Assembly (NCBI GenBank): GCA_009692665.1
Contig: SHYT01000008.1
Coordinates: 14,764-78,763, forward strand
Direction: 5' to 3'
Origin: Dehalococcoidia bacterium
GTDB taxonomy: Bacteria; Chloroflexota; Dehalococcoidia; Lucifugimonadales; SHYT01
Length of the DNA: 64,000 nt
Shown here: positions 8,823-62,629 of the stretch, in pieces
Layout of the letters: each line of letters opens with the position of its first letter
How positions within the stretch are numbered: the stretch's first letter is position 1
The notes under the pieces: model-generated
Told to the model about the DNA's origin: nothing
Seen by the model: only the letters and a program-made list of their open reading frames with translations
The model's database searches: none
Position numbers and translations under genes: made by a program

Positions 8823-9047
8823 GGTCACTATGAATGGCGCGTGGATTTTTGCTCCCTCACGACCTTGTCGCAGGTAGCGCTTGGCCAGAGTGCGGAACAA
8901 AGGTGTCAGGGTTCACCTGCTCAAGAAGGGTTCCATCTGCCTCTTCGACGAAAAGGCGATATCGCGCATTTAAATAGGTAGCTGGCATTCTGTTCCAACG
9001 CGATATATGATTGGTTTCAATCGGGGAAGGAGGAAAGGCGAAAAATT

Positions 9048-10307
9048 ATGTTCTTCATGCATTTCACAGAGAAACCTTGGCAAGACGACAGAACTGAGCG
9101 TGTAGGCCAGAACGACTTCGACTTGGAACTGAGCAACGGTTTCTATGACCCAGTGTTGGGCAACAAGCTCTATAACCGCTACATTGACGAAGATATTTTC
9201 TGTGAAGAGATGGGCTTTGACGGCCTCATGCTCAACGAGCACCATAGCACGCCAGGCTGCATGCAAGGTGTCACCAACGTTGGGTTGTCCATCTTGGCCC
9301 GCGTTACCAAGAAAATCAAGTTGATTCCCCTTGGGAACATTCTCCCTGCTTGGGATGACCCCATGTGGCTCGCGGAACAGCTAGCCATGATCGACGTGAT
9401 TTCCGGCGGCCGCTTGGTCTCCGGCTGGGTGCGTGGTACTGGCCGGGAGCACGTGGTGCACAACACGCATCCCCCGTCCAACTGGGAGCGGTTCCAAGAG
9501 GCACACGACCTCATCATCAAGACCTGGACAACACCTGGGCCGTTCCGCTGGGAAGGGAAGCATTTCCAGTACCGGTATGTGAACCCCTGGGTCGTGCCCT
9601 ACCAGAAACCCCATCCGCCTATCTGGATTCCGGGCACAGCAAGCCGTGCCACCGTGGATTGGGCTGCCAAGAACGGGTTCCCGTACATCATCTTGGGGGC
9701 CGAGCTGGAAGCGACAAAGAGCACGTTTGCGTACTACCACACCGCGGCTGCGGAGTATGGGTTCAAGACGGGTACCCAGCACAATGGGGAGCTCATCAAG
9801 GTCCACTGTGAAGCCACAGAAGAGAAGGCTGACGAGGTCGGACGGAAATTCCTGGGCGGAGTCCGGAATCCTTTCCTGCTTGGTAATGAAGGGCGTGTGA
9901 AGTCGTGGGTGCAAGCCCTCCCAGGGCTGTCACCGAGGAAAGCGGCTGAGAGGATCGAAACGGGCATCGGTCCAGTTGGCCGCGGCGGTCCGGCCGGTGG
10001 CGCACAGTCAGCCTCATACGAAGAACAGTCCGCAAAATACTTGATCATCAGCGGCACACCCAAAACCGTTATTACCAGGGTGAAACATGTGATGGAGCAG
10101 ACGAGGCCTGGTACCCTGCTCCTTTGGGACGGCGAAGGGGCCATGAACCATGAGGACCACATGCGCAGCCTGAAACTCCTGGGGACGGAAGTCCTGCCTG
10201 CGCTGCGTGACTATGCAAAAGAACTGGGCATCGTTGGCCCGTTTGACACGAATCCGGTTGCCGGTATGACCCGCGGCTTGGTCCCAGAGGCGGTAACGGC
10301 TCGCTAG
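9048..10307 (+). CDS. Luciferase-like (LLM) flavin-dependent monooxygenase, subfamily A copy 1
   Basis: GFDGLMLNEHHSTPGCMQ and IDVISGGRLVSGWVRG match the LLM TIM-barrel pattern. Close paralog of 27807-29075. Confidence 0.85.
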   Translation: MFFMHFTEKPWQDDRTERVGQNDFDLELSNGFYDPVLGNKLYNRYIDEDIFCEEMGFDGLMLNEHHSTPGCMQGVTNVGLSILARVTKKIKLIPLGNILPAWDDPMWLAEQLAMIDVISGGRLVSGWVRGTGREHVVHNTHPPSNWERFQEAHDLIIKTWTTPGPFRWEGKHFQYRYVNPWVVPYQKPHPPIWIPGTASRATVDWAAKNGFPYIILGAELEATKSTFAYYHTAAAEYGFKTGTQHNGELIKVHCEATEEKADEVGRKFLGGVRNPFLLGNEGRVKSWVQALPGLSPRKAAERIETGIGPVGRGGPAGGAQSASYEEQSAKYLIISGTPKTVITRVKHVMEQTRPGTLLLWDGEGAMNHEDHMRSLKLLGTEVLPALRDYAKELGIVGPFDTNPVAGMTRGLVPEAVTAR

Positions 10308-10381
10308 CCTCCGCGGTTTTTGGCATGGGATATTCCAAAACGCGCTATGAGCTAGTGTCGTAGCACAAAAAGGGGTTCTAG

Positions 10382-12262
10382 ATGTTAAATCCCGTCCGGC
10401 GCCCTATACCCATTCTGCTTGTTGGCATTCTAGCGCTCGTTTTTGCCTTAGCCTGTTCAAAAGCAGCAGCCCCTGCAGCAACGCCTTCACCTGCGCCATC
10501 GACTACCCCATCGCCCACGGCTGCGCCCGCCCCGGCCACTGCGCCCGCGGCAATTACGGCGCCACTGGCCTCCGCAGGAGTGTTCGCGGTCGATCCGCGG
10601 TCAGACGAGCCGGGGTCTACCATGCCGCAAGAGGTCTTGAAGTACAACTACACCAAGCTGCCCATGTGGACAAAAGCGAAGTACGGCGGCGAACGCGTCG
10701 GAAACGGGGGAACGTATAGCATCCTCCAGCAAAACCCGTTCACGTCCTTTAGCAAGCGCAACATCTTTGCGGGCATGTTCATCATGATTGACGCCGGGAC
10801 GTGCAGCTCCATTGGGCGGACGGACTTCTCTGAGTGCAATGGCGTCCGTAACAACGCCCTTGTTGGCACGCTGGTGCCTGGTCTGGTGGAGAAGTGGGAG
10901 CGGCCAGACCCGCTGACGGTGGTTCTTACCCTACGGCAGGGGGTGCTCTGGCCCAACTTGCCACCCATGAACCTCCGCCCCAACCGGAATGTCACCGTGG
11001 AAGATATGAAGTGGTACTTTGAAACGCAGAAGAATGAAGGCGTCTACCGGGACACCTTCGCATTGGTGGACACCTTTGAGGTCGTCGACAGCCGGACGTT
11101 GCGTCTGCGTTTTGCCCAGCCTCACTCCACCTTCATTCAGATGCTGGCCAACTACGGCCTTGGCATCATCCCCAGGGAATGCTACGAGGATAAGGCGGGA
11201 TGCCTGGCCAAGCGTCTCATCTCCCCAGGTCCGTTCATCTATGATGAAGCGGGTTCCGAGCCTGGTAACAAAGTGATCTACAAGAAGAATCCCGAATTTT
11301 GGCTCAAAGGACTCCCCTACCTGGACCAACTGCGGACGATCCGGGTCACGGATTTGGCGGCACAGCGGGCGGCCTATATCACGGCGCAGTTCGATCAGTT
11401 CGCGGTATATTCGCCGCGAGAGCGCGATCAGCTTCTGAAGGAAACGCCGGCTTCGCAAGTCCAAACACAGTATTGCTCCTGCGGGTCTGCCCATTTTCAG
11501 ATGCGGATGGACCAAGCGCCGTTGAACGACGTGCGTGTCCGCCGTGCGCTGTCCATGGCCATGGACAGGCCCAAGGCGTGGTTAGCTGGCAACGACGGCT
11601 ACAACGCCATGGGTTCACCGATGGCGTTCGACTTTTTGGGCCTCAACCTCTTCGTCAGCCTGAAAACTGCGGGCCCATACAACCAGTACAACCCTGCGGA
11701 AGCAAAACGGCTCCTTGCTGAAGCTGGCTATCCAAGCGGTTTTGCGATCACTGTTAACATAGCAAATAGTGGAGCCAGCACCCAGTACGGAAGCGTCGAG
11801 ATGGTTACTTCGTTACAACAGGACTGGGCCAAGGTCGGTGTGACCTTGCAACTAAAACTCATTGACGCTCAGGCGGAAGCTGGTTTGAGGCGCGACAAGA
11901 AATGGGATGGCATGCTGTTCAGTCAGTGCTATGACTGTAACGCCACTGACCCGGACAGCTACTTCCTCGTCGGCTATTCCAAGAGTGTCCGGAATTTGCA
12001 GGGGATCAATGACCCCATCATCGACGATATGTACCTGAAAGCCCGTTCTGAGGTGGACCCCAAGAAGCGGGAGCAGATCTACTGGGACTTCAACAACCGC
12101 ATGTTTGACCAGATGTATGGTATGCACTTTGGCAATCCTAGCGGCTTTGAGTTTTTTGCCCCATGGCTCAGGAACGCCTCAAGCCATGTGTGGGCCTACG
12201 CTAGTATCACCAACTTTGCCAGTTGGGTCATGTGGATTGATCCCGACCTCATGAAGAAATAA
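10382..12262 (+). CDS. Lipoprotein, ABC-type family-5 solute-binding protein (SBP1)
   Basis: Signal peptide with lipobox (LVFALAC), then a Pro/Ala/Thr-rich tether, then an SBP_bac_5-like body. Close paralog of 42915-44807. Confidence 0.85.
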   Translation: MLNPVRRPIPILLVGILALVFALACSKAAAPAATPSPAPSTTPSPTAAPAPATAPAAITAPLASAGVFAVDPRSDEPGSTMPQEVLKYNYTKLPMWTKAKYGGERVGNGGTYSILQQNPFTSFSKRNIFAGMFIMIDAGTCSSIGRTDFSECNGVRNNALVGTLVPGLVEKWERPDPLTVVLTLRQGVLWPNLPPMNLRPNRNVTVEDMKWYFETQKNEGVYRDTFALVDTFEVVDSRTLRLRFAQPHSTFIQMLANYGLGIIPRECYEDKAGCLAKRLISPGPFIYDEAGSEPGNKVIYKKNPEFWLKGLPYLDQLRTIRVTDLAAQRAAYITAQFDQFAVYSPRERDQLLKETPASQVQTQYCSCGSAHFQMRMDQAPLNDVRVRRALSMAMDRPKAWLAGNDGYNAMGSPMAFDFLGLNLFVSLKTAGPYNQYNPAEAKRLLAEAGYPSGFAITVNIANSGASTQYGSVEMVTSLQQDWAKVGVTLQLKLIDAQAEAGLRRDKKWDGMLFSQCYDCNATDPDSYFLVGYSKSVRNLQGINDPIIDDMYLKARSEVDPKKREQIYWDFNNRMFDQMYGMHFGNPSGFEFFAPWLRNASSHVWAYASITNFASWVMWIDPDLMKK

Positions 12263-12307
12263 CCTGAAGCGCGCTAGGTGTGGCTGGCGAACTACGGGAA
12301 GCTGCCA

Positions 12308-13440: not shown

Positions 13441-13660
13441 CCCCTTCCTTTTAGGGAAGGTGAGTTAGAGGGATTAGGTGGGCAGGGCGGCGATGGCCTG
13501 CCGCCAGCAGCAGCACGTTTTCCTCTGGCAAAAGCATGAGAGATTCTGAGTGGCAATGAGCCGTAGCGAAATCCGACTGCGCCCAGTAAGACGAAGCATG
13601 CCTGAAGCAGACGTCGCAGACCCCGAGTTAGGTCGAGGGGAGCCGAAGCCGAAGGAAATC
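13441..13660. repeat. Intergenic repeat cluster A (degenerate REP-like units)
   Basis: Contains the hairpin CCTTCC-TTTTAG-GGAAGG, GGATTAGGTGGG, the cores GAGAGATTCTGAG (13538-13550) and GTCGCAGACCCCGAG (13613-13627), and GAGCCGAAGCCGAAGGAAA. These are shared with clusters B and C. Confidence 0.6.
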
Positions 13661-13950
13661 TGCGGGCGGGGAAACACACGGTTTTTGAGGCAAAATAGGC
13701 CAAAATGCGAATTGTGAGGCAAGCCGATAAGAAGGGGATTTAGTCCCTACGTCTCAAGAACGAATTCTAGCATAGCAATGGCCATTAACACTGGAATGAG
13801 TCGCGAGAAATAATGATCTTGGGCTTGCACAGAAATTGGCCTGAAAATGGGATTTGTTGTGCAAAGCCTGATCGTCTTGACAAGTCGCTTCAGCAATCAC
13901 TAGGATGGCGCGAAACTCGAAGTACGGCAAAAATTGGGGAGGGATTGAAC

Positions 13951-15030
13951 ATGGTAGTTGGATGGGCCATCGAAGGTCTGGGTGGATGGGCCGATCATAC
14001 GGTCGCTCCCGCGCTTAAGCAGGCTAAGAATACGAAGCTGGTTGGCGTGGTCAGCAGAGATCTGGCCAAAGCTCAGAAGTTCGCGAAGTACCACGAGATT
14101 ACGAATGCATATGACAACTTGGGGGCCTTACTCAACAACAAGGATGTCAACGCTATCTACGTGGCTACCCCAAACAGCTTGCATGCAGATTCGGTCGTGG
14201 CGGCTGCGCAACGCGGCATTCACGTCATGTGCGCAGTGGCGATGGCCGTCACCGAGGAAGACTGCGTCAAGATGGTGGATGCCTGCAAGAAGTACAACGT
14301 GCGGCTAGGCGTGGACTTCCAGACCCGCTGGCATCCGGCGTTCCGCGCGCTGAAGCAGACTATTGCTGATGGCACAATTGGCCAGGTAGTGACTGCCCGC
14401 GTGCAGCTGTCCAGCGCAGGGGCTCAGTACCGCCCGCGCCAAGCCTGGCGTGTGCCCAACGATGGTGTTGACGGCGACAACATCATGCCAAGAACAGGTG
14501 GAGGCCCGGCGCATCCGGACGCGTGGCAGCGCAACCTGGCCATGCGTGGAGCGGGCGTACTCTCCGGGCGCGGCATGTTTGGCACGGACATGCTTCGCTT
14601 CCTCTTCGGCGACTTTACTGAGGTGAGCGCCATTTCGAACGTGGCGACCGCGCCGCGTAACCAGGAGACGTTTGTTGTGGCTAGCGTGGCGTTCAAGAAC
14701 GGCGTGGTGGCCAACTACGATTCTGCGGATAGCACGCCATTCCCGGACAACTCGGTCACTGTCTATGGCACCAAAGGCACCGCCATAGCTACTGGGCTCC
14801 AGACTTCTCACGCGGACGGCACGCTGGAAGTGAAGACGGACAAGGGCCGGCTGTTCCGTGAATTCTTTGGGTACAACATGTATCAGGATGAGTTTGAAGC
14901 GTTCAACGAGTGCATTGCCACCGGCAAGGACCCGGATCCGTCCGGCGTAGATGGCTGGCGTGAGCGGCAGATGACTCTGGCCATTCGTGAATCAGCGGTC
15001 AAGGGAACGGCGGTCAAAGTCAAGATCTAA
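13951..15030 (+). CDS. Gfo/Idh/MocA-family oxidoreductase (atypical: EKP motif absent)
   Basis: Family-like N-terminal Rossmann region and KLVGVVSRDLAKAQKFA. The position of the GxHVxCEKP motif reads GIHVMCAVAMA. ATG 13951 follows GGGGAGGG; the longest ORF starts at 13813. Confidence 0.7.
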   Translation: MVVGWAIEGLGGWADHTVAPALKQAKNTKLVGVVSRDLAKAQKFAKYHEITNAYDNLGALLNNKDVNAIYVATPNSLHADSVVAAAQRGIHVMCAVAMAVTEEDCVKMVDACKKYNVRLGVDFQTRWHPAFRALKQTIADGTIGQVVTARVQLSSAGAQYRPRQAWRVPNDGVDGDNIMPRTGGGPAHPDAWQRNLAMRGAGVLSGRGMFGTDMLRFLFGDFTEVSAISNVATAPRNQETFVVASVAFKNGVVANYDSADSTPFPDNSVTVYGTKGTAIATGLQTSHADGTLEVKTDKGRLFREFFGYNMYQDEFEAFNECIATGKDPDPSGVDGWRERQMTLAIRESAVKGTAVKVKI

Positions 15031-15098
15031 CCCGCAAGCTATGGTCTCGGCCGGCGCCTACCGAACAACCAAAGCCGAAGGGAAAGGGGGTGGTATCC

Positions 15099-15848
15099 AT
15101 GCCAACAGTGCTCTATGAAAAGAAGGGCCACGTCTCCTATGTGACACTCAACCGGCCAGAGGTCCTTAACGCCATTAACTCAGAGATGCGTGAGGAGCTC
15201 GAGCAGGTATGGTTCGATTTCGAGCAGGACCCGGACGCATGGGTTGCCATCATGACCGGCGCGGGCCGCGGCTTCTCCGCTGGTGGTGACCTGCGGGCTC
15301 GCGACCGCGGAGCGGCCCCCACGAGGCCTGCGCATAGCTACAGCCACAGGGACGTTATGAAGCCCATCATCTGCGGCATCAATGGCCCGGTCCGGGCGGC
15401 GGGTATGGACATGATGCTGCCGTGCGACATCCGTGTCGCCGCAGATGTCGCAACCTTTGGCATGACCATGACCAGCTGGGGTGTCATGGCCTCCACCGGA
15501 GCCTCGCAGCTCCCGCGCTCCATTAGGTGGGCGAATGCTATGGAGTTGCTTATGACCGCGGAGCCTATCAACGCCCAGGAGGCCTATCGCATTGGCCTGG
15601 TGAACAAGGTGGTGCCCCTGGAGAAACTGATGGAGACGTGCGACGAGTACGCGGCGAAGATTTTGCGGAACTCCCCGACCGCTATCCGCCTGACGAAGGA
15701 AGCCGCCGTGCGCGGCAGAGACGCTACCCTGGCGGAGAGCTTGCACATCGGTTCCATGCTGGGACGCTACTCTGGGACAACTGAGGACTCCAAGGAAGGG
15801 CCAAAGGCGTTTACAGAAAAGCGTAAGCCCAACTGGAAGAACCACTAA
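15099..15848 (+). CDS. Enoyl-CoA hydratase/isomerase (crotonase fold)
   Basis: VTLNRPEVLNAIN and IMTGAGRGFSAGGDL are crotonase signatures. ATG 15099 follows AAGGGGG. Confidence 0.85.
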   Translation: MPTVLYEKKGHVSYVTLNRPEVLNAINSEMREELEQVWFDFEQDPDAWVAIMTGAGRGFSAGGDLRARDRGAAPTRPAHSYSHRDVMKPIICGINGPVRAAGMDMMLPCDIRVAADVATFGMTMTSWGVMASTGASQLPRSIRWANAMELLMTAEPINAQEAYRIGLVNKVVPLEKLMETCDEYAAKILRNSPTAIRLTKEAAVRGRDATLAESLHIGSMLGRYSGTTEDSKEGPKAFTEKRKPNWKNH

Positions 15849-16028
15849 CAGCCTCATTGTGGTGTTTTGCACGCTGTATCTTGGACAGGCATGCAGAACA
15901 CACCCAAAGGCCAGGAACATTTGCAAAAGTTTCGATTTTTTGCTGACTAAAGCCAATCAAAACTGAAAAAATGGAAAAGGGGGGACGCGAGAGCCGTTCT
16001 CTCGGTTCTGGCTAGAGGCCGGCCAGCC

Positions 16029-17282
16029 TTAGGCCCGCGTCTTGGCTCGTGCTCGTGTCCCGGTTTCGGGCAGGGTAAATGCGACAATAGTCATCAGCAC
16101 AGGGAAGAAAATCAACGCAAGAAGTCCTGCCTTAAGCGATCCGGATAAGGTCGCAACGATACCGGTCAAGAGTGGACCACCTAGAATCCCCAACGTGACA
16201 ACCGTACGCATGACAGACTGGCCCATTGCTATATCAGAGGGACTCGTGTCGGGGAGTTCAAATGGGATGCTTTGGAGCGCAGGGAAAGGCGACCATGCGA
16301 CGAAGCCCACGACCACCGCCGTGGCAAGCAGTGCTTGCCAGGATAAGGGTGAAAGCAGAAGAAAATAAAGGAAAGGGAGCAGCACGCCGCTGGGGATAAT
16401 GGTCGGCTTCCGTAGCCCTATCTGGTCGGACAGGTATCCCATAGTCACAGTGGCTAATATTCCGCCTACCGATAGACCGCCTACGATAAGACCAGCCATC
16501 GAAAGGGAGAACCCGCGAGATTCCGTCAGGTAGCTGGGCAGAAACAAGATAAACGTTGTCCATGTAATTGCAGTGCTCCATTGAGCAAGTCCAAGGAGAA
16601 AGTACTCCTTTCGCTTGAAGACTTTTTTCAGTGAGCTCCAGCCGCCGCCTCTGGTCACAGCACTCAAATATCCGGAAGTAGGGTGCTCTTTTCCTGTAAG
16701 GGCCCAAAAGCAGGCCAACACCAGCACGGCCATCCCAGTGACAATGTAGACTTGCCGCCAGTTGCCTATGAGCCCCAGCAGCACAGGCACCAAGATGGTC
16801 CCCGCGCTTTGGCCGGTATTGGATAGCCCCATGCTGAAGCCCATAACGGTCGCGAACTCACGTCTTGGTATCCACTGTAGCCGTAGCAAGGTGAGGGGGA
16901 TTTGCAAGGAGGAATTCACCACCGTAAACAGCACTATCGCTATCGATAGCGATAAATAGCTCTGGACGAAGCCGGTCGCCAATAAAATGACGCCCACTAA
17001 GAAAAGAAAAGAACCGTATACCCACTTTGGGCTAAGTTTCACCAGCACCAGGGAAGAAGGAATAATCGTGAGCGCCACAGCCAGTTGACTGGCGCTGCCA
17101 AGCCAGCCTGCCTGAAGCAGCCCAAAGCCTAAATCTTTGCGCATTGCGGGGAGCAAGACGCCCAAAGGCAAGAGCAAAATCATCTGAGTATGGATCCATG
17201 TACTGCCAATAATAACCCAGCGGTACCCAGATGGTTTGCTGGATTCTGCAGAGGTAGACGTTTCAGAAATTTTGTTGAGCAT
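16029..17282 (-). CDS. MFS transporter
   Basis: 417 aa, about 12 hydrophobic segments, GYLSDQIGLRKP loop in the second half. ATG start. Confidence 0.8.
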   Translation of the reverse strand: MLNKISETSTSAESSKPSGYRWVIIGSTWIHTQMILLLPLGVLLPAMRKDLGFGLLQAGWLGSASQLAVALTIIPSSLVLVKLSPKWVYGSFLFLVGVILLATGFVQSYLSLSIAIVLFTVVNSSLQIPLTLLRLQWIPRREFATVMGFSMGLSNTGQSAGTILVPVLLGLIGNWRQVYIVTGMAVLVLACFWALTGKEHPTSGYLSAVTRGGGWSSLKKVFKRKEYFLLGLAQWSTAITWTTFILFLPSYLTESRGFSLSMAGLIVGGLSVGGILATVTMGYLSDQIGLRKPTIIPSGVLLPFLYFLLLSPLSWQALLATAVVVGFVAWSPFPALQSIPFELPDTSPSDIAMGQSVMRTVVTLGILGGPLLTGIVATLSGSLKAGLLALIFFPVLMTIVAFTLPETGTRARAKTRA

Positions 17283-17491
17283 AGTGAAGTCTCTGCCTTA
17301 CGCGTTTCGAGTGGAGTGATTCCAGCAAATCCGCCAAGACTGCCACATCATGCTTCGCAGCAAGGCCAGCGCTCCTGCCGAAGCCCATTGTACAGGCCTA
17401 GAGCACTACTGCAGACGGCCTTGGGTAGGTGATAGCCAGTTCATCAGCATCCAGGCACTGAGGCAACTTAGCGCTCAAGCTACGGGATAGT

Positions 17492-17511
17492 GAATGCAGT
17501 ACACTGCATTC
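17492..17511 (+). promoter_or_regulatory. 20-bp palindrome upstream of the hydratase RBS (candidate operator or 5'-UTR hairpin)
   Basis: GAATGCAGT-AC-ACTGCATTC has perfect 9-bp arms and ends 9 nt before the GGAGG of the 17532 gene. Confidence 0.3.
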
Positions 17512-17531
17512 CGCATTGTAGGAGGCAGAAC

Positions 17532-18374
17532 ATGACTGAAGTCAAACGGACACCGGATGGAAAGATTGTGCCGGCCCCAACTCCCGATGACGTTCTCTAC
17601 CGCACTAAGGACGGGGCTGCATGGATCGCGCTGAACCGGCCGGACGTCCTCAATGCTATCAGCAAGAATGTGCTGCGCCTGTTGTACAAGGCCCTTGAGC
17701 GTGCGGATGCCGACCCCGCTGTGAGAGTCGTCATTCTCACCGGGGAGGGACGGTCGTTTAGCGCCGGAGGGGATCTCAATTCCGCTCGTTACTATCCCGA
17801 TGCAGATCCAGCGCCAACCTCGCTCGAGGTCCAGATGAAGATATGGGGGCTTTCAAAGCCAGTCATTGCGATGGTTCGAGGCCATGCCTTGGGCCAGGCG
17901 TGCGAGCTGGCGGGTGTCTGTGATATGACCATTGCCTCCGAGGACGCGCAGTTCGGCGAAATACAGATTAGGAATGGCTCGCTGCCGCCTGTGCTCATCA
18001 CGCCATTTCTCGTGACGCTAAAGCATGCGAAGGAGATCCTGCTCTTGGGCGATGTCCTGAGCGCCACTGAGGCCGCGCGAGTGGGACTCGTGAACAAGGT
18101 GGTGCCTTCTGACAAGCTCCAGGCTGAGACTGAGGCACTGGCCCGCAAGTTTGCTGCCCTATCGCAGCATGCGGTGAAGATGAATAAGGCGCTCATCAAC
18201 CGGGTGTATGAGCTAGCCCACATCCAGAAAGCAATGGACTATCGGGATGACCCCGCGATAGCTGCGGCGCTGGAAGCGGGCAGGGCTGATGCTCTGACAC
18301 AGGAGCGCCGCAAGACCCTGCAAGAACAGGGATGGGATGCCTTCAAGGAATCACGGGACAAGGAATATAAATAG
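17532..18374 (+). CDS. Enoyl-CoA hydratase/isomerase (crotonase fold)
   Basis: IALNRPDVLNAIS and ILTGEGRSFSAGGDL match the fold. ATG 17532 follows AGGAGG; the longest ORF starts at 17490. Confidence 0.85.
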   Translation: MTEVKRTPDGKIVPAPTPDDVLYRTKDGAAWIALNRPDVLNAISKNVLRLLYKALERADADPAVRVVILTGEGRSFSAGGDLNSARYYPDADPAPTSLEVQMKIWGLSKPVIAMVRGHALGQACELAGVCDMTIASEDAQFGEIQIRNGSLPPVLITPFLVTLKHAKEILLLGDVLSATEAARVGLVNKVVPSDKLQAETEALARKFAALSQHAVKMNKALINRVYELAHIQKAMDYRDDPAIAAALEAGRADALTQERRKTLQEQGWDAFKESRDKEYK

Positions 18375-18419
18375 TATTCCAGTCTAGGCGCGACCACAGC
18401 CCTCATTGGGCCGCCATAA

Positions 18420-18458
18420 AAATGCATGGCAAAGGTCATAAACCTTTGCCATGCATTT
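18420..18458 (+). terminator. Rho-independent terminator
   Basis: Perfect 17-bp stem AAATGCATGGCAAAGGT / ACCTTTGCCATGCATTT with a CATAA loop, followed by a T-containing tail. Confidence 0.7.
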
Positions 18459-18530
18459 GGTTCAAGTGCCGCTCGGTCTTAGCCCCCGGTGGTAGCCCTT
18501 GATTGCTTTAATGCCAACCTCTACTTCAGG

Positions 18531-18808
18531 GAAGGTCGCAGGCGCAGACCCCCGAGCCGTGCCGAGGCGTAGAGTCAAAATGGAAAGGGCAGGAAAGTCC
18601 CTCTCCTCGTGGGAGAGGTCGCAGACTCTGAGCTTGCCGAAGAGGATTTAGGGTGAGGTTGGCTGGGCGGAGAGGATCTGCCGCTACAGCGACAGTTTTC
18701 AATACAGATTGGCATTCTGGCAAGAGCACGTACAATTCCGAGCCACAGCGTTACCCGACTGCTGCCGCCAGGCTCCGAGTAGGGTGGAATCCGCAGCCCT
18801 TCGTGTCT
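18531..18808. repeat. Intergenic repeat cluster B
   Basis: Cores GTCGCAGGCGCAGACCCCCGAGCC (18535-18558) and GTCGCAGACTCTGAGC (18618-18633), and the hairpin CCTCTCC-TCGTG-GGAGAGG. GTTACCCGACTGC (18750) and GGGTGGAATCCGCAGCCCTTCG (18782-18803) are matched in cluster C. Confidence 0.6.
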
Positions 18809-19481
18809 ACCACCGTTCGAATTTGATGCGCTCTGAGGGCACATGCATGCTCCGCAGGTCCTTATTGAGTCCGTCAACCATTTCTTGTGGCCCGCACAAA
18901 TAAAATACAGGGCGCTTTTTGTCAAACTCTTCTAGTTCCTTGCGCCCGATTCGGCCTTCGCCCGATTCCGTAACGCGGGGCACATAGTGAATGTGGCTGG
19001 CGTTGGCGGCAAGACGGCCCAACTCTTTTCGATACAGTAGCTCGTCAGCGCTATGCACGCTGTGTACAAGTGTGGTCTGAACACGTGGTTCAAACCGCGC
19101 AACGAATCGAACAATGCTCATGAGCGGCGTGAGACCAATGCCTCCCGCGATTAGTAGTAGGTCTTGTGCGGAACCGGGTTTGTAGTAAAAGTCGCCATAA
19201 CCGCCGTCTAAATACAGGGTATCGTCAACCGTTGCGGATTCATGGAGATAGTGGGTCACAGGATTTATTCCCACACGCTTCACTGCCAGCTCAATAAACT
19301 CGGTGTCAGCCGGTGTTGACGTCATTGAATAGCCGGCGACAATCTCCGGCTTTTGGGGGTCCAGATAACAGTCTAGCCATTGGCCGGGCAGGAACTGAAA
19401 TGTCTGTCCGGATAGCACCAGCTTAAACGAGCGTACGGTAGGGGTTTCTTGTGTTATTGCTGCGATTGTGACGCGGATCAT
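18807..19481 (-). CDS. FAD/NAD(P)-binding ferredoxin-reductase-type oxidoreductase
   Basis: FR-type FAD domain (GQWLDCYL, AGYSMTS) and NAD-binding LLLIAGGIGLTPLMSI. ATG 19481 follows GGAG; the longest ORF starts at GTG 19505. Confidence 0.75.
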   Translation of the reverse strand: MIRVTIAAITQETPTVRSFKLVLSGQTFQFLPGQWLDCYLDPQKPEIVAGYSMTSTPADTEFIELAVKRVGINPVTHYLHESATVDDTLYLDGGYGDFYYKPGSAQDLLLIAGGIGLTPLMSIVRFVARFEPRVQTTLVHSVHSADELLYRKELGRLAANASHIHYVPRVTESGEGRIGRKELEEFDKKRPVFYLCGPQEMVDGLNKDLRSMHVPSERIKFERW

Positions 19482-19752
19482 CAAGACTCCAAGTGGCGAA
19501 AGCACCCAGGTTGAGAAGATCAGTCGGCTGAATTATATGGCCCATAGCGTTCAAATGGGCCGGCTATCTTCCAGGAAACCGTGCCCCGTTCACCTGCACT
19601 GTAGTCACGCATGGTAGAATCGGGACATACTGTCAGGACGCAGTTCGGAGCGGCCATCCGCATCACATCTGGCGAGAGTAGTGGTAGCAACGAGCACCTC
19701 TGATACGACCTGTTACCACGGTTATCCTACATTGCAGAAGGAGGCATCCACA

Positions 19753-22146
19753 ATGGTTCAGCAGGCAAAAGAGAAAGCCAAGTATAAAGTCATCGGCACC
19801 AGGCCAATCCGCCATGATGGCGTGGACAAGGTAACAGGGCGTGCCCAGTATGGCGCAGACATCCGGCCTACTGGGCTCCTGTACGCCAAGATGCTCCGCA
19901 GCCCGCACGCGCACGCGCGCATCAAGAAGATAGACGTCAGCCGAGCCTTGGCCCACCCGGGAGTGCGCGCGGTGGTCACGTCCGCGGACCTGGCAGAGCA
20001 ACCGCCCCGCATCGCAGACTTGGGCGAGGGCTCATTTACGAACATGGGATTCCTGTGCATGAACGTCCTCGCGCGCGGAAAGGTCCTGTTCAAAGGCCAC
20101 GCGGTAGCCGCTGTGGCCGCCATCAACGCCCATGTTGCAGAAGAAGCCGTAGGGCTGATTGACGTGGAATACGAGGTGCTTCCTGTCGTTTTGGATGGGC
20201 TGGAGGCCATGAAGCCGGACGCGCCCTTGCTGCACGAGCGTCTCGCAAGCCTTTCCAACCCCAATGTCCGCCCCGGCGGCCTTATGGACGAGAGCGATAA
20301 GCGGAAAGGCAGCAACGTCGCCAACCACTTCGTCTTTGAGATTGGCGATATCGCTAAGGGTTTTGCGCAGGCGTCTATCGTTGTAGAGCGCTGGTACAAG
20401 GTCTCAGCGGCCCATCAGGGGTACATTGAGCCGCTCTCCGCAACGGCCAAATGGAATCCGGACAGCTCGCTCACCATCTGGTGCAGCAGCCAGGGCCACT
20501 TCACTATCCGGGAGCAGACTGCCAAGCTCCTCGGCCTGCCGGTATCCAAGGTCAAAGTAGTCCCAATGGAAATCGGCGGCGGGTTCGGTGCAAAAACCCA
20601 GGTCTTCCTGGAACCCGTTGTCGCCCTCCTCTCCAAAAAGTCTGGCCATCCGGTCAAGATGACTATCAACCGCACGGAGGTCTTTGAGGCCATCGGTCCT
20701 ACGTCCGGCGGCTACGTTCGTGCCAAGATGGGCGTCACCACGGAAGGCCGCATCATTGCCGCGGATGCCACCCTGGTCTACGAGGCTGGCGCGTTCCCAG
20801 GTTCTCCCGTCAGCGGCGGCGCGCAGTGCCTCCTCGGCCCGTACGACATCCCGAACGCGCGCGTTGAGGGATACGACGTCGTGGTAAACAAGCCCAAAGT
20901 CACCGCCTATCGCGCCCCCGGCGCGCCCAGCGGTGCCTTCGCGGCCGAGTCTCTAATAGATGAAATCGCACAGCAGCTCAAGATGGACCCCATAGACTTC
21001 CGGTTAATGAACTCCGCCAAAGAAGGTACGCGCAGGGTGAGCGGTCCCGTCTTCGGCAGCGTCGGCTTTGTAGAGGTGCTGAAGGCCGCCAAAGCGCACC
21101 CGCATTGGAAGGCCCCGCTTACTGGCAAGAACCGTGGGCGCGGTGTGGCTGCTGGGTTCTGGCACAACGGTGCCGGGCCCGCCAGCGCTACGGTCAGTGT
21201 CAACGCGGATGGCACGGTCAACCTCGTGGAAGGCTCGCCGGACATCGGAGGCAGCCGCGCTACCGCTGCTATGCAGGTGGCTGAGGTGCTGGGCTTGCGC
21301 GCGGAAGACGTTCGGCCCCAGGTGGCGGACACCGAGTCCATTGGCTTCACGTCTACCACCGGCGGCAGCGGCGCAACCTTCAAGACCGGCTGGGCCTCCC
21401 ATGACGCCGCCCAAGAGGTGAAGCAGCAAATGCTGGCCCGCGCCGCTACCATCTGGAATGTGAAACCTGACGATCTTAAGTACGAGGGAGGGGTGATCTC
21501 CCACAAGTCGGATCCCGCCCTCCGCATGCCCTTCCGTGACCTGGCGGCCAGGCTGAATGACACCGGCGGCCCCATTGCTGGCCGTGGCGCCGTGAACCCA
21601 CGTGGTGTAGGCGCGGCCCTCTCCGTCAACATCGCGGACGTTGAGGTTGACCCGGACACCGGCAAGACAACTGTCCTGCGCTATACCGCAATTCAGGACG
21701 TCGGTACCGCCATCCACCCAAGTTACGTGGAGGGCCAAATGCAAGGTGGCGCCGTCCAGGGCATCGGCTGGGCATTGACGGAAGAGTTCTATTTCAGCGA
21801 CAAGGGCCAGATGATGAACTCTTCGTTCTTGGACTACCGCATGCCTACCGCGCTGGACATCCCCATGATCGATACGGTCGTCGTCGAGGTGCCCAACCCA
21901 GGCCACCCATTCGGAGTGCGCGGCGTCGGCGAAGTCTGCATCGTGCCTCCGCTGGCGGCCATCGGCAACGCAATCCACCGCGCTACTGGCGTTCGCATGC
22001 ATACCCTGCCCATGAGCCCAAACAATCTTCAGCGGGCAATCGCTAAGAAAGGCGATGATGTCCACTGGACGGTTCCTACCAGCAACGGCGCGTCGCAGTC
22101 CATGAAAGCCGCCGTAGACGCCGAAGGTATCGAGCGCCATGAGTAA
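19753..22146 (+). CDS. Xanthine dehydrogenase/aldehyde oxidase-family molybdopterin-binding large subunit (L1)
   Basis: IGTRPIRHDGVDKVTGRAQYGAD N-terminus, AYRAPGAP, and the C-terminal RGVGEVCIVPPLAAIGNAI Glu loop. ATG 19753 follows GAAGGAGG. Confidence 0.9.
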   Translation: MVQQAKEKAKYKVIGTRPIRHDGVDKVTGRAQYGADIRPTGLLYAKMLRSPHAHARIKKIDVSRALAHPGVRAVVTSADLAEQPPRIADLGEGSFTNMGFLCMNVLARGKVLFKGHAVAAVAAINAHVAEEAVGLIDVEYEVLPVVLDGLEAMKPDAPLLHERLASLSNPNVRPGGLMDESDKRKGSNVANHFVFEIGDIAKGFAQASIVVERWYKVSAAHQGYIEPLSATAKWNPDSSLTIWCSSQGHFTIREQTAKLLGLPVSKVKVVPMEIGGGFGAKTQVFLEPVVALLSKKSGHPVKMTINRTEVFEAIGPTSGGYVRAKMGVTTEGRIIAADATLVYEAGAFPGSPVSGGAQCLLGPYDIPNARVEGYDVVVNKPKVTAYRAPGAPSGAFAAESLIDEIAQQLKMDPIDFRLMNSAKEGTRRVSGPVFGSVGFVEVLKAAKAHPHWKAPLTGKNRGRGVAAGFWHNGAGPASATVSVNADGTVNLVEGSPDIGGSRATAAMQVAEVLGLRAEDVRPQVADTESIGFTSTTGGSGATFKTGWASHDAAQEVKQQMLARAATIWNVKPDDLKYEGGVISHKSDPALRMPFRDLAARLNDTGGPIAGRGAVNPRGVGAALSVNIADVEVDPDTGKTTVLRYTAIQDVGTAIHPSYVEGQMQGGAVQGIGWALTEEFYFSDKGQMMNSSFLDYRMPTALDIPMIDTVVVEVPNPGHPFGVRGVGEVCIVPPLAAIGNAIHRATGVRMHTLPMSPNNLQRAIAKKGDDVHWTVPTSNGASQSMKAAVDAEGIERHE

Positions 22147-22171
22147 TTCCTAACCAAGGGCCGCAAGAAGA

Positions 22172-22200
22172 AGCTAGGGCGGGTACATCCCGCCCTAGCT
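22172..22200 (+). terminator. Terminator hairpin after L1
   Basis: Perfect 12-bp stem AGCTAGGGCGGG / CCCGCCCTAGCT with a TACAT loop, 26 nt after the stop. No strong T tract. Confidence 0.5.
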
Positions 22201-22362
22201 GTTATGAGGATGTCCGTCGAGCGCAGCGAAGGAGAAATCCTCCCGCCCTCGTATCCAATCCAACTACATGGCCGCTGAGGCTGCTCTCGCACTACCCAAG
22301 AGCCTTACACAAAAATGCTCGGTGCATGCACGAAAAGCCGCCGCCATCCACACGACCTTCTG

Positions 22363-22512
22363 TTGTCATTCTGAACCGCAGTGTTACCCGACTCGGTGTT
22401 ACACGACTGCTAACAGTAGGGCTCCGCGTAGGGTGAAGAATCCGCAGCCCTTCGCAGACTCCGAGCCGGGCCGAGGGGTCGCAGATCCTGAGCCAAAGCC
22501 GAAGGAGAGAAA
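22363..22512. repeat. Intergenic repeat cluster C
   Basis: GTTACCCGACT (22383), GGGTGAAGAATCCGCAGCCCTTCG (22431-22454), cores CGCAGACTCCGAGCC (22453-22467) and GTCGCAGATCCTGAGCC (22478-22494), then AAAGCCGAAGGAGAG. Co-linear with part of cluster B. Confidence 0.6.
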
Positions 22513-23263
22513 CGTCCCGACCTTTTTGTCCAAAACCACTACCTAAAGAAAGCGATCATCAACCCCTTGCTTCACACCTCTCGCGGCGAAATACTTGAAA
22601 GAGTGCGGAGTCGTGCTCTGGCTCGCTACGAAAACAATGTGCAATTGAAAACGTGCCAACCAGCAGCCAGTGGCACTGTGGCTAATCCGAAGTGCCGTTC
22701 TAAGTTGCACTGCAACTCCTCAGAAATACCTGACTGCCTGGCGTGACGCGGCCTTGCACGAAAATCTGCCCTGAGGATACTCGTGCGCAGGCACGCTCAG
22801 TCCCCCCTCCTGCGAGAGTGGGCGAGGGTGCTACGCAACACCCCGTGCCGATGCACTTGCACTCAAGCACCAAACAGTTTGAAAGCAAAGCCCCCGTGAG
22901 CAATGGAAAGGGGCAAGGAAGTAACGTTACATAATAAGTTAGCTAGTAAAGTACAGGAGGGGTCATGAAGGCTCACCACGCTGGGGACTGTGTTTCTACA
23001 AGGGGCAATCTTGATCCCAGAATCAGGGCAAGGTATCTTGTGACACCCTCAGTGCCTGGGCCATCGCGGGCCAGTTGCGACACAATGCACTCATTCCTGT
23101 AATCCTCAACGGCAATGCAGCGGAAGTCGTTAACGCTGCATCTCCCGCTCCAATGACAGTAGTGGCCATACTTGGCAGGCTTGACGTATAACAGTAAGAT
23201 TCATGCAACCTGCAAGTACCCACAGCGGCACAATACGGAAGTATCTAGCAAGAAGGGGACTCG

Positions 23264-25588
23264 ATGACAACTACCTCTGGTCGCACAAATACCCCTGCCA
23301 CCCAATACAAAGTCGTCGGCACAAGGCCAATTCGCCACGATGGAGCGGATAAAGTAACAGGGCGCGCTCGGTATGGCCTAGACTTCAACGTGGTAGGTCT
23401 GCTGCATGGGAAAATCCTTCGTAGCCCACACGTACATGCCAGGATCAAGTCCATTGACACCAGCGCAGCCGAAAAGTTGCCAGGGGTTAAGGCGGTAGTC
23501 ACAGCGCGTGATTTCCCCGCCAACCCGAAAGGCCAACCCATCGATTTTGCGGAAGCGGGCGCCGACGTCCGCGTACTAGCCGAAAATATCATGGCTGGCC
23601 GAGTGGTCTTGTACCAGGGCCATGCGGTTGCAGCAGTCGCCGCTACCAACGAGCATATTGCGGAAGAAGCCCTGGGTCTCATCAAGGTAGAGTACGAAGT
23701 ATTGCCTGCATTGCTGGACGTGCGGGAATCCATGAAACCGGATGCGCCTCTTATCCACGAAAAGCTGACTACATTTTTTACAAAGGACCGGCAGGGTAGA
23801 GGCGAGAACACCGGCGTCAAGAGCAACATCGCCACCCACTTGCAGTTTAAGCGCGGTGACCTCGCCACTGGCTTCAAAGAAGCCCACGTCGTCGTGGAAC
23901 GAGAGTTCACAACCTCCATGGTGCATCAGGGCTATATCGAGCCCTACGTCTCTACAGGTCAGTGGGGGAAAGACGGGCGTATCACTGTTTGGACGAGCAC
24001 ACAGAATCCGTTTGGCATACGGGCTTCCACTGCCGCAATCCTTGGAGTGCCTGAGTCCACAGTTAAGGTCGTCTCCATGGAAATTGGCGGCGGGTTCGGT
24101 GGCAAGCAACCCGCGTACCTGGATCCCGTGGCAGCCATGTTGTCCAAGAAGAGCGGTCGTCCGGTCAAGATCGTCATGACGCGCAAAGAAGTGTTTGATA
24201 GCACTGGCCCTGCCTCCGGCTCGTACCTGCGTTGCAAAATCGGCGCCACAAAGGACGGGCGGATCACTGCGGCCGAACTGTATTTGGCGTACGAGGCTGG
24301 TGCATTTCCAGGTTCACCAATCGCTGGCGGCGCAATGAGTAGCTTTGGCCCGTACAAAGTGGAAAACATGATGGTTGAAGGCTACGATGTGGTCGTCAAC
24401 AAGCCCAAAGTGCAGGCCTACCGTGCCCCCGGGCAACCACAGACAAACTTCGCTGTTGAGTCGGTAGTCGACGAGTTAGCTCAGAAGCTGGGTATAGATC
24501 CCCTGGAGTTTCGTATAAAGAACGCCACAGACGAGGGAGACCTGATGCCGAGTGGCATGGTGTTCCCTCCGATGGGTCTGAAGCAATTAGAAGAAGCAAT
24601 GAAGAACCACGATCACTATAAAACGCCATTGACTGGTCCCAATCGTGGTCGTGGGATTGCAGTGGGGTATCGTTTCAACGGTGGGGGAGTCTCCTCTGCG
24701 ACAATCAATGTAAACGACGATGGTACAGTCGCGCTGGTTACCGGATCAGTGGATATTGGAGGAACGCGAACATCTGTCGCGATGCAGGCGGCCGAAGTGC
24801 TTGGGCTTCGTGCAGAGGATGTCACCCCAACTGTGGTTGACACCGATTCGATTGGGTGGACCGGCACAACCGCCGGTAGCCGGGTTACTTTTGATACGGG
24901 CTTAGCCGCCATTACGACTGCGGAAGAAGTGAAGCGGCTTATGATCGCGCGGGCTGCCAAGATCTGGGAAGTACCGCCGGCGGAGGTTGCTTTTAAAGAC
25001 GGCGTCTTCACCTCCTTGAAGAATCCCAACGATAAGCTTACCTTCAAGCAATTGGCTGCTAGATTGCGAGCCACTGGCGGTCCTGTCACTGCTTCAGCAA
25101 TCAATGGCTCCACAGGCGTTGGTCCAATCTTCGCCGGCAATATCATAGACGTAGAGGTAGATCCCGAAACTGGGAAGGTTCAAATCTTGCGGTGCACAGC
25201 ATTCATGGACGCAGGCAAGGCCGTCCATCCCAGCTACGTAGAAGGCCAACTTCAAGGTGGTACTGCACAGGGAATTGGTTGGGCCTTAAACGAGGAGTAC
25301 TTCCTCACCAAGGAAGGTGGTATGGCCAATTCCACGTTCCTGGACTACCGCATGCCAACGGCGCTGGATTTGCCCCTGATAGATACGGTGCTTATTGAGG
25401 TGCCAAATCCACGGCATCCGTTTGGACTGCGTGGCGTCGGGGAGGTTCCCATTGTGCCGCCGCCAGCTGCTCTTGCAAATGCCATCGCACGGGCGACCGG
25501 AGCGCGGCTTACCAAGCTTCCCATGAAACCTGGCACTATTTGGGAAGCAGTAGAAGCACACAAGGCAGCCACCAAAACCAAGAAGTAG
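23264..25588 (+). CDS. Xanthine dehydrogenase/aldehyde oxidase-family molybdopterin-binding large subunit (L2, paralog of L1)
   Basis: VGTRPIRHDGADKVTGRARYG, AYRAPGQP and RGVGEVPIVPPPAALANAI are co-linear with L1 over the whole length. Confidence 0.9.
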   Translation: MTTTSGRTNTPATQYKVVGTRPIRHDGADKVTGRARYGLDFNVVGLLHGKILRSPHVHARIKSIDTSAAEKLPGVKAVVTARDFPANPKGQPIDFAEAGADVRVLAENIMAGRVVLYQGHAVAAVAATNEHIAEEALGLIKVEYEVLPALLDVRESMKPDAPLIHEKLTTFFTKDRQGRGENTGVKSNIATHLQFKRGDLATGFKEAHVVVEREFTTSMVHQGYIEPYVSTGQWGKDGRITVWTSTQNPFGIRASTAAILGVPESTVKVVSMEIGGGFGGKQPAYLDPVAAMLSKKSGRPVKIVMTRKEVFDSTGPASGSYLRCKIGATKDGRITAAELYLAYEAGAFPGSPIAGGAMSSFGPYKVENMMVEGYDVVVNKPKVQAYRAPGQPQTNFAVESVVDELAQKLGIDPLEFRIKNATDEGDLMPSGMVFPPMGLKQLEEAMKNHDHYKTPLTGPNRGRGIAVGYRFNGGGVSSATINVNDDGTVALVTGSVDIGGTRTSVAMQAAEVLGLRAEDVTPTVVDTDSIGWTGTTAGSRVTFDTGLAAITTAEEVKRLMIARAAKIWEVPPAEVAFKDGVFTSLKNPNDKLTFKQLAARLRATGGPVTASAINGSTGVGPIFAGNIIDVEVDPETGKVQILRCTAFMDAGKAVHPSYVEGQLQGGTAQGIGWALNEEYFLTKEGGMANSTFLDYRMPTALDLPLIDTVLIEVPNPRHPFGLRGVGEVPIVPPPAALANAIARATGARLTKLPMKPGTIWEAVEAHKAATKTKK

Positions 25589-25760
25589 CCTTAATTCCTT
25601 TAAGAGGGGTCTGCGTAGACCTATCTGGAGAGCATATATGGTAGAGTAGACCACCTTTGTAAAATGGCGCCAGGCTTACAGGACGGGCCAGCAATAGGGT
25701 TGCTGAACGACAATGGCTAGGAAGCAGCGCTTAAGTTCATACGTGAAGGAGGCGGGTTCT

Positions 25761-27769: not shown

Positions 27770-27806
27770 GTGCTGCAAGAGTTGAAACGGAAAAAGGGGA
27801 AGTTCC

Positions 27807-33583: not shown

Positions 33584-33617
33584 GAAAGAGTCTGCGCCCC
33601 GAAGCGTAGACTCTTTC
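33584..33617 (+). terminator. Terminator-like hairpin after the SDR gene
   Basis: GAAAGAGTCTGCG / CGTAGACTCTTTC forms a 13-bp stem with one G-U pair. It is built from the CGCAGACTC core seen in the repeat clusters. Confidence 0.5.
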
Positions 33618-44807: not shown

Positions 44808-44875
44808 CGGTGGCAACCAGGTAACTAAGTTCTAACAGAGGTTAGACTAGACTAGTCGGCAAGCATGAGCACCGA

Positions 44876-53871: not shown

Positions 53872-54103
53872 ACAGTATCCCTTCGAGCTTGCCCTGCCGT
53901 TCGACAGTGGATTGCTTGGGCGGCTTCATACCGTAAGCAGTATTTCGCCGCGAGTGGTGTGAAGCAAGGGGTAGGTGTCCCGACAAACTGCTGCGTCTGG
54001 CCATGGCCGTATGCACTCCTACGCGCTTGGGGCTACAGCTAGGACAGCCAGGAGAAGGAGAAAGCGTAGCTTTCTCCTCGTGCTTACGTTTTACTCGGGC
54101 CAT

Positions 54104-62570: not shown

Positions 62571-62586
62571 CACCCGTACCCCGTAG

Positions 62587-62607
62587 GGGCAGGTTTGAAA
62601 CCTGCCC
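62587..62607 (+). repeat. REP-like hairpin GGGCAGGTT-TGA-AACCTGCCC upstream of the Y1-transposase-like gene
   Basis: Perfect 9-bp stem with a 3-nt loop, 17 nt after the lutB stop and 23 nt before ATG 62630. Confidence 0.6.
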
Positions 62608-62629
62608 TAACCTGCGGTGAGGAAACGCC

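Follow-up and report, generated by a model that had tools for sequence, protein, structure and literature searches.

In a 64-kb window of the Dehalococcoidia bacterium contig SHYT01000008.1 (the window being the whole stretch analysed, in whose positions its clusters and units are numbered) we found three clusters of short repeats, named A, B and C, which are real and related to each other. They are non-coding and constitute a selfish or structural DNA repeat of the kind of the repetitive extragenic palindromes (REPs) and bacterial interspersed mosaic elements (BIMEs). Their common part is a hairpin unit of 27-28 nt, whose family recurs almost unchanged in many bacterial phyla and is not private to this genome. 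The stem of the family covaries. The unit can insert into DNA as exactly 27 nt, leaving no target duplication; it does so in either orientation and also in frame within genes. Taken as a whole, the best explanation sees the clusters as REP/BIME-like arrays in decay, made up of a small, non-coding, mobile DNA hairpin, an account that we consider probable with its steps of spread and mosaic copying included.

Relatedness and anatomy of clusters A, B and C

A sequence-only reading of this DNA had placed repeat cores at 13613, 18535, 18618, 22453 and 22478, with a weak variant, GAGAGATTCTGAG, at 13538, and had taken the three clusters as one family. We recovered both the positions and the grouping. 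Within the window, CGCAGAYYCYGAG with at most one mismatch has 4 matches when 0.73 are expected, and none of 100 shuffles (0/100) reaches 4, so the motif is more frequent than composition predicts. Local alignment joins 54 nt of A and B (13469-13523 with 18650-18701, score 37 against a null of 19 ± 2) and 57 nt of B and C (18750-18804 with 22398-22455, score 61 against 21 ± 2); the 27 nt common to A and C (13614-13641 with 22452-22479, score 29, null 21 ± 2, null maximum 30) are marginal alone. The three similarities are all in + orientation, the opposite strand having given none, and all five units lie on the + strand. In addition, a covariance model of the unit (R1), built from 51 matches in other genomes plus two window units, matches the window at 13607-13646 (42.6 bits), 22445-22484 (38.0), 18612-18650 (26.9, outside the training set), 22485-22512 (13.9) and 18552-18567 (10.6). 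Over the whole 64 kb, R1 gave nothing credible beyond the three clusters, and hidden Markov models of the modules described below gave no additional copy of the shared modules. Chance resemblance of the clusters was rejected by the covariance model as well as by the shuffles. The hairpins at 33584-33617 and 25608-25621, once counted to the family for a shared 9-mer (CGCAGACTC), do not belong to it: with at most one mismatch the 9-mer occurs 19 times in the window against 18 expected, and R1 matches neither hairpin.

The unit begins with an unpaired 8-nt 5' tail, (G)TCGCAGA (GTCGCAGA), and continues as an imperfect hairpin, YCCY-GA-GC / loop / G(Y)C-GA-RGGR, which has four Watson-Crick pairs, a tandem G.A/A.G mismatch, two further pairs and a loop of 3-5 nt; it is the GA/GA step that can give rise to the tandem mismatch. 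Among the window copies the four outer pairs show compensation, being CCCC/GGGG in A, CTCT/AGAG in B and TCCT/AGGA in C. After some unit copies comes a half unit, AGC..YCGAAGG. The parts of the clusters are as follows.

13443..13460, + strand: leading hairpin of cluster A, CCTTCC/TTTTAG/GGAAGG (sequence, inverted repeat I1, RNA fold), counterpart of the B hairpin 18600-18618
13469..13523, + strand: module M3 of cluster A (TTAGG..GGCAGGGCGG hairpin GCCGCC..CAGC..GTTTTC), 79% identical to B 18650-18701 (alignment score 37; nhmmer E 7e-17)
13560..13612, + strand: weak M4-like stretch of cluster A (by eye and alignment A1; not significant alone)
13576-13587, + strand: small hairpin ACTG-CGCC-CAGT in the M4-like stretch of A, matching ACTG-CTAA-CAGT of cluster C
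13613..13640, + strand: unit A1, GTCGCAGA + CCCC-GA-G/TTAGGT/C-GA-GGGG, preceded by C (CGTC tag) (R1 42.6 bits, E 5e-11)
13641..13659, + strand: half-unit tail of cluster A, AGCCGAAGCCGAAGGAAA (sequence; the tail type recurs elsewhere)
18535..18569, + strand: unit B1, degenerate, with truncated tail GTCGCAG, then GCGCAGA + CCCCCGAGCCGTGCCGAGGCG (nhmmer E 1e-4; R1 partial, 18552-18567, 10.6 bits)
18600..18618, + strand: leading hairpin of cluster B, CCTCTCC/TCGTG/GGAGAGG, which with unit B2 and AGGGTGAGG is the sub-threshold whalefall-1 match 18597-18660 (RF01762)
18618..18644, + strand: unit B2, GTCGCAGA + CTCT-GA-GC/TTG/CC-GA-AGAG, with compensated stem CTCT/AGAG (R1 26.9 bits, E 2e-6, not in the training set)
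18650..18701, + strand: module M3 of cluster B (local alignment, nhmmer, identity)
18750..18804, + strand: module M4 of cluster B (GTTACCCGACTGC..GGCTCCG.GTAGGGTG.GAATCCGCAGCCCTTCG), 85% identical to C (score 61; nhmmer E 2e-16)
22379..22393, + strand: partial duplicate of the M4 5' end in cluster C, GTGTTACCCGACTCG (nhmmer M4 positions 2-16; sequence)
22398..22455, + strand: module M4 of cluster C (local alignment, nhmmer, identity)
22451..22478, + strand: unit C1, TTCGCAGA + CTCC-GA-GC/CGG/GC-GA-GGGG (R1 38.0 bits)
22478..22506, + strand: unit C2, GTCGCAGA + TCCT-GA-GC/CAAAG/CC-GA-AGGA, then GAGAAA (R1 13.9 bits for 22485-22512)

Unit B2 is matched also in an independent assembly of the same organism (L121 157-195). 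Unit C2 stands in tandem, 27 nt after C1, and is nearly identical to a copy within a Nomurabacteria gene (L053). Module M3, common to A and B at 79% identity, contains a GGCGG/CCGCC hairpin, and module M4, common to B and C at 85% identity and weakly to A, a small ACTG/CAGT hairpin of variable loop; in cluster B, M4 ends 2 nt short of the stop codon of the convergent reductase gene. The sharing between B and C had been noticed in the sequence-only reading and is confirmed here, while the additional 54-nt module of A and B and the spread of the unit over several phyla had been missed. The order of parts is hairpin, M3, M4-like stretch, unit and half unit in A; unit, hairpin, unit, M3 and M4 in B; partial M4, M4, unit and unit in C. 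The clusters are thus a circularly consistent mosaic of about 200-280 nt. Neither terminal inverted repeats common to A, B and C nor target duplications were found.

All copies had been described as intergenic and the open reading frames (ORFs) overlapping them as probable artefacts. In agreement, neither of two independent gene callings of this organism places a gene in the clusters, and the ORFs look like artefacts because they have no Pfam match and are absent from these other callings. Rfam returned nothing at gathering score for the whole window. The sequence-only reading had proposed a covariance model and a fold as checks: the model detects the units, but the folds of the whole clusters are no more stable than shuffles (z = -0.04, +0.79 and +1.06). 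Promoter- and terminator-like sites in the clusters are not above shuffles either. Hammerhead and other ribozyme cores, the K-turn, CRISPR repeats and attC sites were rejected by eye, their defining sequences or spacing being absent.

The unit in other genomes and within genes

A scan of one genome per species with the pattern GTCGCAGAYYCYGAGN{5,9}CGARGRR, in which complementarity is not demanded, matched at least 117 loci. Hosts among the matches listed are Planctomycetota, Verrucomicrobiota, Acidobacteriota, Chloroflexota, many Patescibacteria, delta- and gamma-proteobacteria, Clostridia and Bacteroidota. The loop gaps of these matches are of 5 nt in 52, 6 nt in 52, 7 nt in 0, 8 nt in 9 and 9 nt in 4 (Chi-square p = 1e-24), and the longer-gap matches look like coding sequence hit by chance. 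Among the matches listed, the three variable stem pairs are strongly associated (Fisher 2e-7, 2e-5 and 4e-12), and the loop-closing pair, which the pattern leaves free, covaries as well (CG 42, AU 3, UG 2, UA 1). This covariation of stem pairs is seen in 53-104 sequences, with a score that tops 500/500 shuffles and every slid register. A longer stem, in which G13/A14 would pair with the 3' flank, was unsupported, the A14-N35 pair occurring in 8/53 sequences. Outside the stem, the tail NGTCGCAGA is conserved and four extra bases stand between tag and stem. The base before GTC in 78 units is T in 45 (58%), G in 16 (21%), C in 10 (13%) and A in 7 (9%), CGTC being found in the window only at unit A1, and the commonest 3' triplet of the units is AGC, not CCA.

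The arrangement of the units also recurs. Tandem arrays with a period of 27-28 nt, as in cluster C, occur at two loci (L003, L044). Inverted pairs occur at two others (L035, L088), among the extra copies that R1 finds in several loci, and the model also recovers the remaining window units; some other genomes have several dispersed copies. The tail noticed in the sequence-only reading proved real: it is the half unit, which follows 19 of the 78 clean matches listed and is tied to a 5' CCT (Fisher 7e-8), an association that suggests a longer nested form. In the metagenome-assembled genome CAWGIE01 (L018 7316-7742, L026, L033, L061, L090, L100) the right half of a repeat of about 230 nt contains the unit. 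This repeat holds internal hairpins and several GTAG motifs, has terminal inverted repeats (TGTAGGATCGTCCTT / AAGGACGATACTACA), and is present in at least 6 copies more than 90% alike, so that in another genome as well the unit forms the core of a longer repeat specific to that genome.

Phage contigs of IMG/VR gave one unit match and plasmids six weak partial matches. Intergenic copies have no orientation bias with respect to the flanking ORFs (10/8/7/6, by crude ORF calls). Clustering of gene neighbourhoods over the at least 117 loci listed gave few families, each in 7-10 loci and unannotated, none of which stood out as transposase-like. Sequence strings searched for in the literature gave no match. 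In Patescibacteria and Verrucomicrobia (L031, RecG ORF; L011) the unit is found together with GC-rich hairpin repeats that differ from it in sequence, such as GCCGAAGCTTCAGCGAAGGTGAC and LRQAQGK-coding hairpins, within genes as well; this suggests a wider set of such hairpin elements.

In low-GC genomes the GC-rich unit is found in frame within genes that are long and real. There it takes both orientations and all five of the stop-free frames, and no other frame. The host genes encode the CCA-adding enzyme, RecG, arginyl-tRNA synthetase (ArgRS), a glycosyltransferase, RecJ, a flavin adenine dinucleotide (FAD) oxidase, DnaK, initiation factor 2 (IF-2) and a YfcE-like phosphoesterase; these in-gene copies are those of L053 (6352-6379, - strand), L031, L050, L067, L073, L080, L054, L028 and L104 (5172-5199, - strand). 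At L053, the unit corresponds to a 9-residue insert in the CCA-adding enzyme when compared with solved structures (PDB 6ibp). Among homologues of this enzyme at 69-82% identity, 31/120 are filled and the rest are empty, reading LLM(G/S/D)(R/K)EPKDWD. The DNA of 2 empty and 3 filled alleles shows an exact 27-nt insertion after TTAATG, with no target duplication of 2 nt or more. On a neighbour-joining tree the filled alleles lie scattered, with 24 parsimony steps against a null mean of 27.5, in a tree that is poorly resolved and on which other indels are homoplastic too. Among the three filled alleles, which are only three related sequences, synonymous differences number 2 in 21 comparisons for the stem codons against 84 in 178 for the flanks (Fisher p = 8e-4).

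Gene context and origin of the clusters

Cluster A is flanked by a luciferase-like gene (-) and a GFO/IDH/MocA gene (+), cluster B by an enoyl-CoA hydratase gene (+) and a flavin reductase gene (-), and cluster C by two paralogous molybdopterin-binding (Mo) subunit genes (+,+). The product of 19681-22146 is 100% identical to a protein that NCBI lists under a Dehalococcoidia name. Cluster C opens the 1.1-kb gap between these paralogues (22147-23263), which is without convincing ORF or Rfam match and of which the cluster explains the first third only. Just downstream of it, at 22557-22595 and 670 nt upstream of the second Mo-subunit gene, lies one copy of a 39-nt repeat (ACCCCTTGCTTCACACC.CTCGCGGCGAAATACT), 92% matched by another at 53939-53977, on the opposite strand and with unrelated flanks; it reads like a sigma-70-type promoter (TTGCTT, 17 nt, AATACT). 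Immediately past the stop codons of the hydratase gene and of the first Mo-subunit gene, and upstream of B and C, stand two perfect hairpins, at 18420-18458 (17-bp stem) and 22172-22200 (12-bp stem). Both are outside the repeat family and are probably transcript ends. Independent assemblies of the same organism (L121; two contigs of the European Nucleotide Archive, sample ERZ1305449) end close to clusters B and C, one independent contig covering about 18456-22212 of the window and another stopping 23 nt past the first Mo-subunit gene. Repeats often cause assembly breaks.

The window is also rich in paralogous gene blocks of 64-86% DNA identity, comprising SBP_bac_5 binding proteins, luciferase-like genes, Mo-binding subunits and enoyl-CoA hydratases (9034-12263, 27793-29052 and 43138-44808; 19778-20921 with 23301-24432; 15572-15616 with 18062-18106). 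Cumulative GC skew climbs almost monotonically over 1-64000, which suggests that the leading strand may be the + strand, where all five units have their GTCGCAGA strand; three clusters are too few for a test of strand bias.

As for the origin of the clusters, we propose that the unit spreads as DNA through a folded single-stranded intermediate, on which a trans-acting enzyme would work, similar in kind to those that move REPs and IS200/IS605 ends (a Y1 HUH transposase or a functional equivalent). This mechanism is drawn by analogy with REP/RAYT (REP-associated tyrosine transposase) and IS200/IS605 systems and from the seamless insertion. New copies would tend to land beside old ones. In this Dehalococcoidia genome, units may have combined with the lineage-specific M3 and M4 into the mosaic of about 200-280 nt, which would then have been copied to three intergenic sites within 9 kb after the duplication of neighbouring genes, and would have decayed since. 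Its present effects would be incidental, candidates being neighbouring transcript ends, DNA-binding proteins, and errors of assembly or annotation. A more far-reaching joint reading is tentative, and we hold it as possible rather than probable: the unit would be an undescribed pan-bacterial mobile hairpin, conserved at the nucleotide level from Patescibacteria to Planctomycetota and Chloroflexota, that enters and leaves DNA seamlessly by means of a single strand and an enzyme, is repeatedly gained and lost at the same site of essential genes, and is kept by selection or homogenisation acting on nucleic acid and not on protein, the window clusters being old landing pads.

Several observations weigh against the favoured account of decaying REP/BIME-like arrays. 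The units are only five, all within 9 kb, with none elsewhere in the scanned 64-kb window. No syntenic relative of the window was found that would show empty sites at A, B and C, the best homologue being 72% identical and not syntenic. No mobilising enzyme is linked to the unit, the clustering of neighbours over the loci listed having given only common families, and the RAYT-like ORF of the window does not fit as a partner. M3 and M4 are without relatives wherever searched: they are absent among the at least 117 unit-bearing loci listed, and a metagenome scan gave two chance coding matches only. The mosaic may be peculiar to this region, or else a functional RNA. Furthermore, T.G pairs outnumber C.A pairs 22 to 6 in the clean matches, a preference that also fits an RNA role, and within genes the nucleotides of the unit appear conserved beyond synonymous sites, which hints at function over pure selfishness.

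The last two points bear on an alternative that we regard as unlikely, in which the mosaics are structured non-coding RNA genes, or cis-acting elements in the untranslated regions of the neighbouring + strand genes, of the two-hairpin whalefall-1 type. In a search by E-value, whalefall-1 (RF01762) matches 18597-18660 at full length with 22.5 bits (E 0.0012 in 351 nt), all units share the strand of the flanking + genes, and the small hairpins of M3 and M4 keep their stems and vary their loops; the tolerance of T.G above C.A and the nucleotide conservation past coding need count for this reading too. That match, however, lies under the gathering score of 37, the second hairpin of the family seed differs, and neither cluster A nor cluster C has a whalefall-1 match. 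Whole-cluster folds and promoter- or terminator-like sites stay at the level of shuffles, and cluster B lies beyond the perfect 17-bp hairpin that probably ends the upstream transcript. In other genomes, moreover, the unit has no orientation bias to genes and is found antisense within them. It is likewise improbable, in our judgement, that the mosaics are leftovers of local segmental duplication among paralogues and were never mobile. The region does contain tandem paralogues (the hydratases ECH1/ECH2 and the two Mo-binding subunits), the three copies have a single orientation and fit within 9 kb, M3 and M4 appear nowhere else searched, and terminal repeats and target duplications are lacking. 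Against this, the modules are 79-85% identical and the flanking paralogous genes 64-66%; the mosaics are thus younger than the neighbouring gene duplications, which argues against simple co-duplication. The clusters also stand at positions that are not equivalent relative to the paralogues, with nothing after ECH1 or the second Mo subunit, the module order is circularly permuted between clusters, and the unit clearly moves in other genomes.

Two further explanations are weaker. A link of the repeats to the RAYT-like gene at 62630-63145 (region 62583-63145) had been raised in the sequence-only reading and was not borne out; that the units are REPs mobilised by this gene seems very improbable. 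The ORF, located between lutB- and lutC-like genes, is Y1-transposase-like and has a WQRNYYEH motif, and tblastn found a homologue 4 kb from a unit at L104. Yet this is only 1 of the at least 117 unit loci listed, and the ORF has no Pfam match and a degenerate HUH region that reads MPND. Before it stands a hairpin of its own with the classical GTAG tag (GTAGGGGCAGGTTTGAAACCTGCCC); this hairpin occurs once in the window and has no relation to the unit, and R1 found no unit near the ORF in the 64 kb. In addition, PMC3733652 reports that CGTC-type REPs have never been seen to flank tyrosine transposase genes, and the REPtron feature (a cognate flanked RAYT gene) is likewise lacking in CGTC REPs according to it. 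That the clusters encode small proteins is hardly credible. Each of the three is overlapped by ORFs of 82-116 aa (one, 22268-22546, has VADPEPKPKE-like repeats) and the differences between units fall at third codon positions in one frame; but Pfam and the two other gene-calling pipelines recognise none of them, the ORF strands differ between clusters, and in other genomes the unit is read in five frames.

If the clusters are mobile-hairpin arrays, as we favour, three gene-free stretches of this genome are explained, three or four spurious ORFs are removed and the contig breaks of other assemblies are accounted for. The more interesting part is the pan-phylum distribution and the nucleotide-level conservation within genes. 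A 27-nt hairpin found in distant phyla and in essential genes, with filled and empty alleles among close homologues, makes it tractable to ask how REPs move that bear a tag but have no dedicated transposase, a question that PMC3733652 leaves open, and also how proteins tolerate such insertions.

Comparison with known systems

Among known repeats the unit is closest to the REPs. Like the REP/BIME of Proteobacteria (GTAG tags, RAYTs and the REP doublets forming hairpins, or REPINs), which are palindromes of 20-40 nt with a conserved unpaired 5' tag, the 27-28-nt unit is an imperfect palindrome that can form a stem-loop. The window clusters resemble them also as intergenic mosaics with short motifs, spurious ORFs and assembly breaks, and elsewhere the unit is both tandem and inverted. 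It differs from the proteobacterial REPs in its tag, (T/G/C)GTC + GCAG and not GTAG, in the tandem G.A mismatch of the stem, in that no flanked RAYT gene was found, so that no REPtron is formed, and in occurring in many phyla, whereas classical families are specific to a species or genus. BIMEs alternate REPs with conserved linkers; the window has conserved non-REP modules, M3 and M4, but its units are all direct. MITEs (miniature inverted-repeat transposable elements) are also short non-autonomous repeats, and the 230-nt element of CAWGIE01, with its terminal inverted repeats, holds the unit; the window mosaics have neither terminal inverted repeats nor target duplications. Of the REP/BIME-like or MITE-like nature first proposed for this DNA, the REP/BIME-like part stands on the palindrome, the unpaired 5' tail, the intergenic mosaic, and the arrays and inverted pairs elsewhere, though without the alternation of BIMEs, and the MITE assignment falls.

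The CGTC-tagged REPs deserve a closer comparison. PMC3733652 reports GTAG- and CGTC-tagged REPs in eight phyla. Its CGTC families (often TGTC) resemble each other between phyla and have no transposase dedicated to them; it also records REPs that form clusters in a Chloroflexi genome, and REPs located inside genes for repair or related to tRNA. The same source places Neisseria dRS3 and Rickettsia RPE-4/RPE-6 (Rickettsia palindromic elements) in the CGTC-tagged super-family (Di Nocera et al. 2013). The unit resembles these families in a terminal tetranucleotide that reads TGTC in 45 and CGTC in 10 of 78 units, and shares the similarity between phyla, the lack of a dedicated transposase and the copies in genes of repair and tRNA enzymes. 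CGTC families 1-4 are described there with a stem of 8-9 bp that starts with A-T, a loop of 4-5 nt, a CCA tail and head-to-head dimers; the unit has loops of 3-5 nt, which are compatible, but four extra bases, GCAG, before the stem, no paired A-T stem start and no CCA tail, and its head-to-head dimers are not predominant. Since the A-T start and the CCA tail are absent and four bases follow the tag, we file the unit as a new REP-like family and not as a CGTC member, set apart by described features and not by consensus sequences.

In its behaviour within genes, the unit is like the Rickettsia elements, which are palindromic repeats inserted in frame in essential genes and translated, as the unit is in the CCA-adding enzyme, RecG, ArgRS, RecJ, DnaK and IF-2 of other genomes. 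It is unlike these elements, which are known from Rickettsia, in being found in many phyla, and in that the window copies are all intergenic. The classical RPE-1 is much longer than the 27-nt unit, at about 100-150 nt. With the ends of IS200/IS605 the unit shares a sub-terminal hairpin with a short unpaired guide, seamless insertion and empty sites that look untouched; it differs in carrying no transposase gene and in having no conserved target tetranucleotide evident in its 5' flanks, and the common mechanism is only inferred. Cluster B, finally, is like the whalefall-1 RNA, a little-known motif described only from a whale-fall metagenome, in the CUCUCC/GGAGAG hairpin followed by a second hairpin and a purine-rich GGGUGAGG, and unlike it in scoring 22.5 bits against 37 and in that the second hairpin of the seed is unrelated to the unit. 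The unit is thus a REP-like repeat, of a general kind already known, and its wider family is of moderate interest for its phylogenetic breadth and its behaviour within genes.

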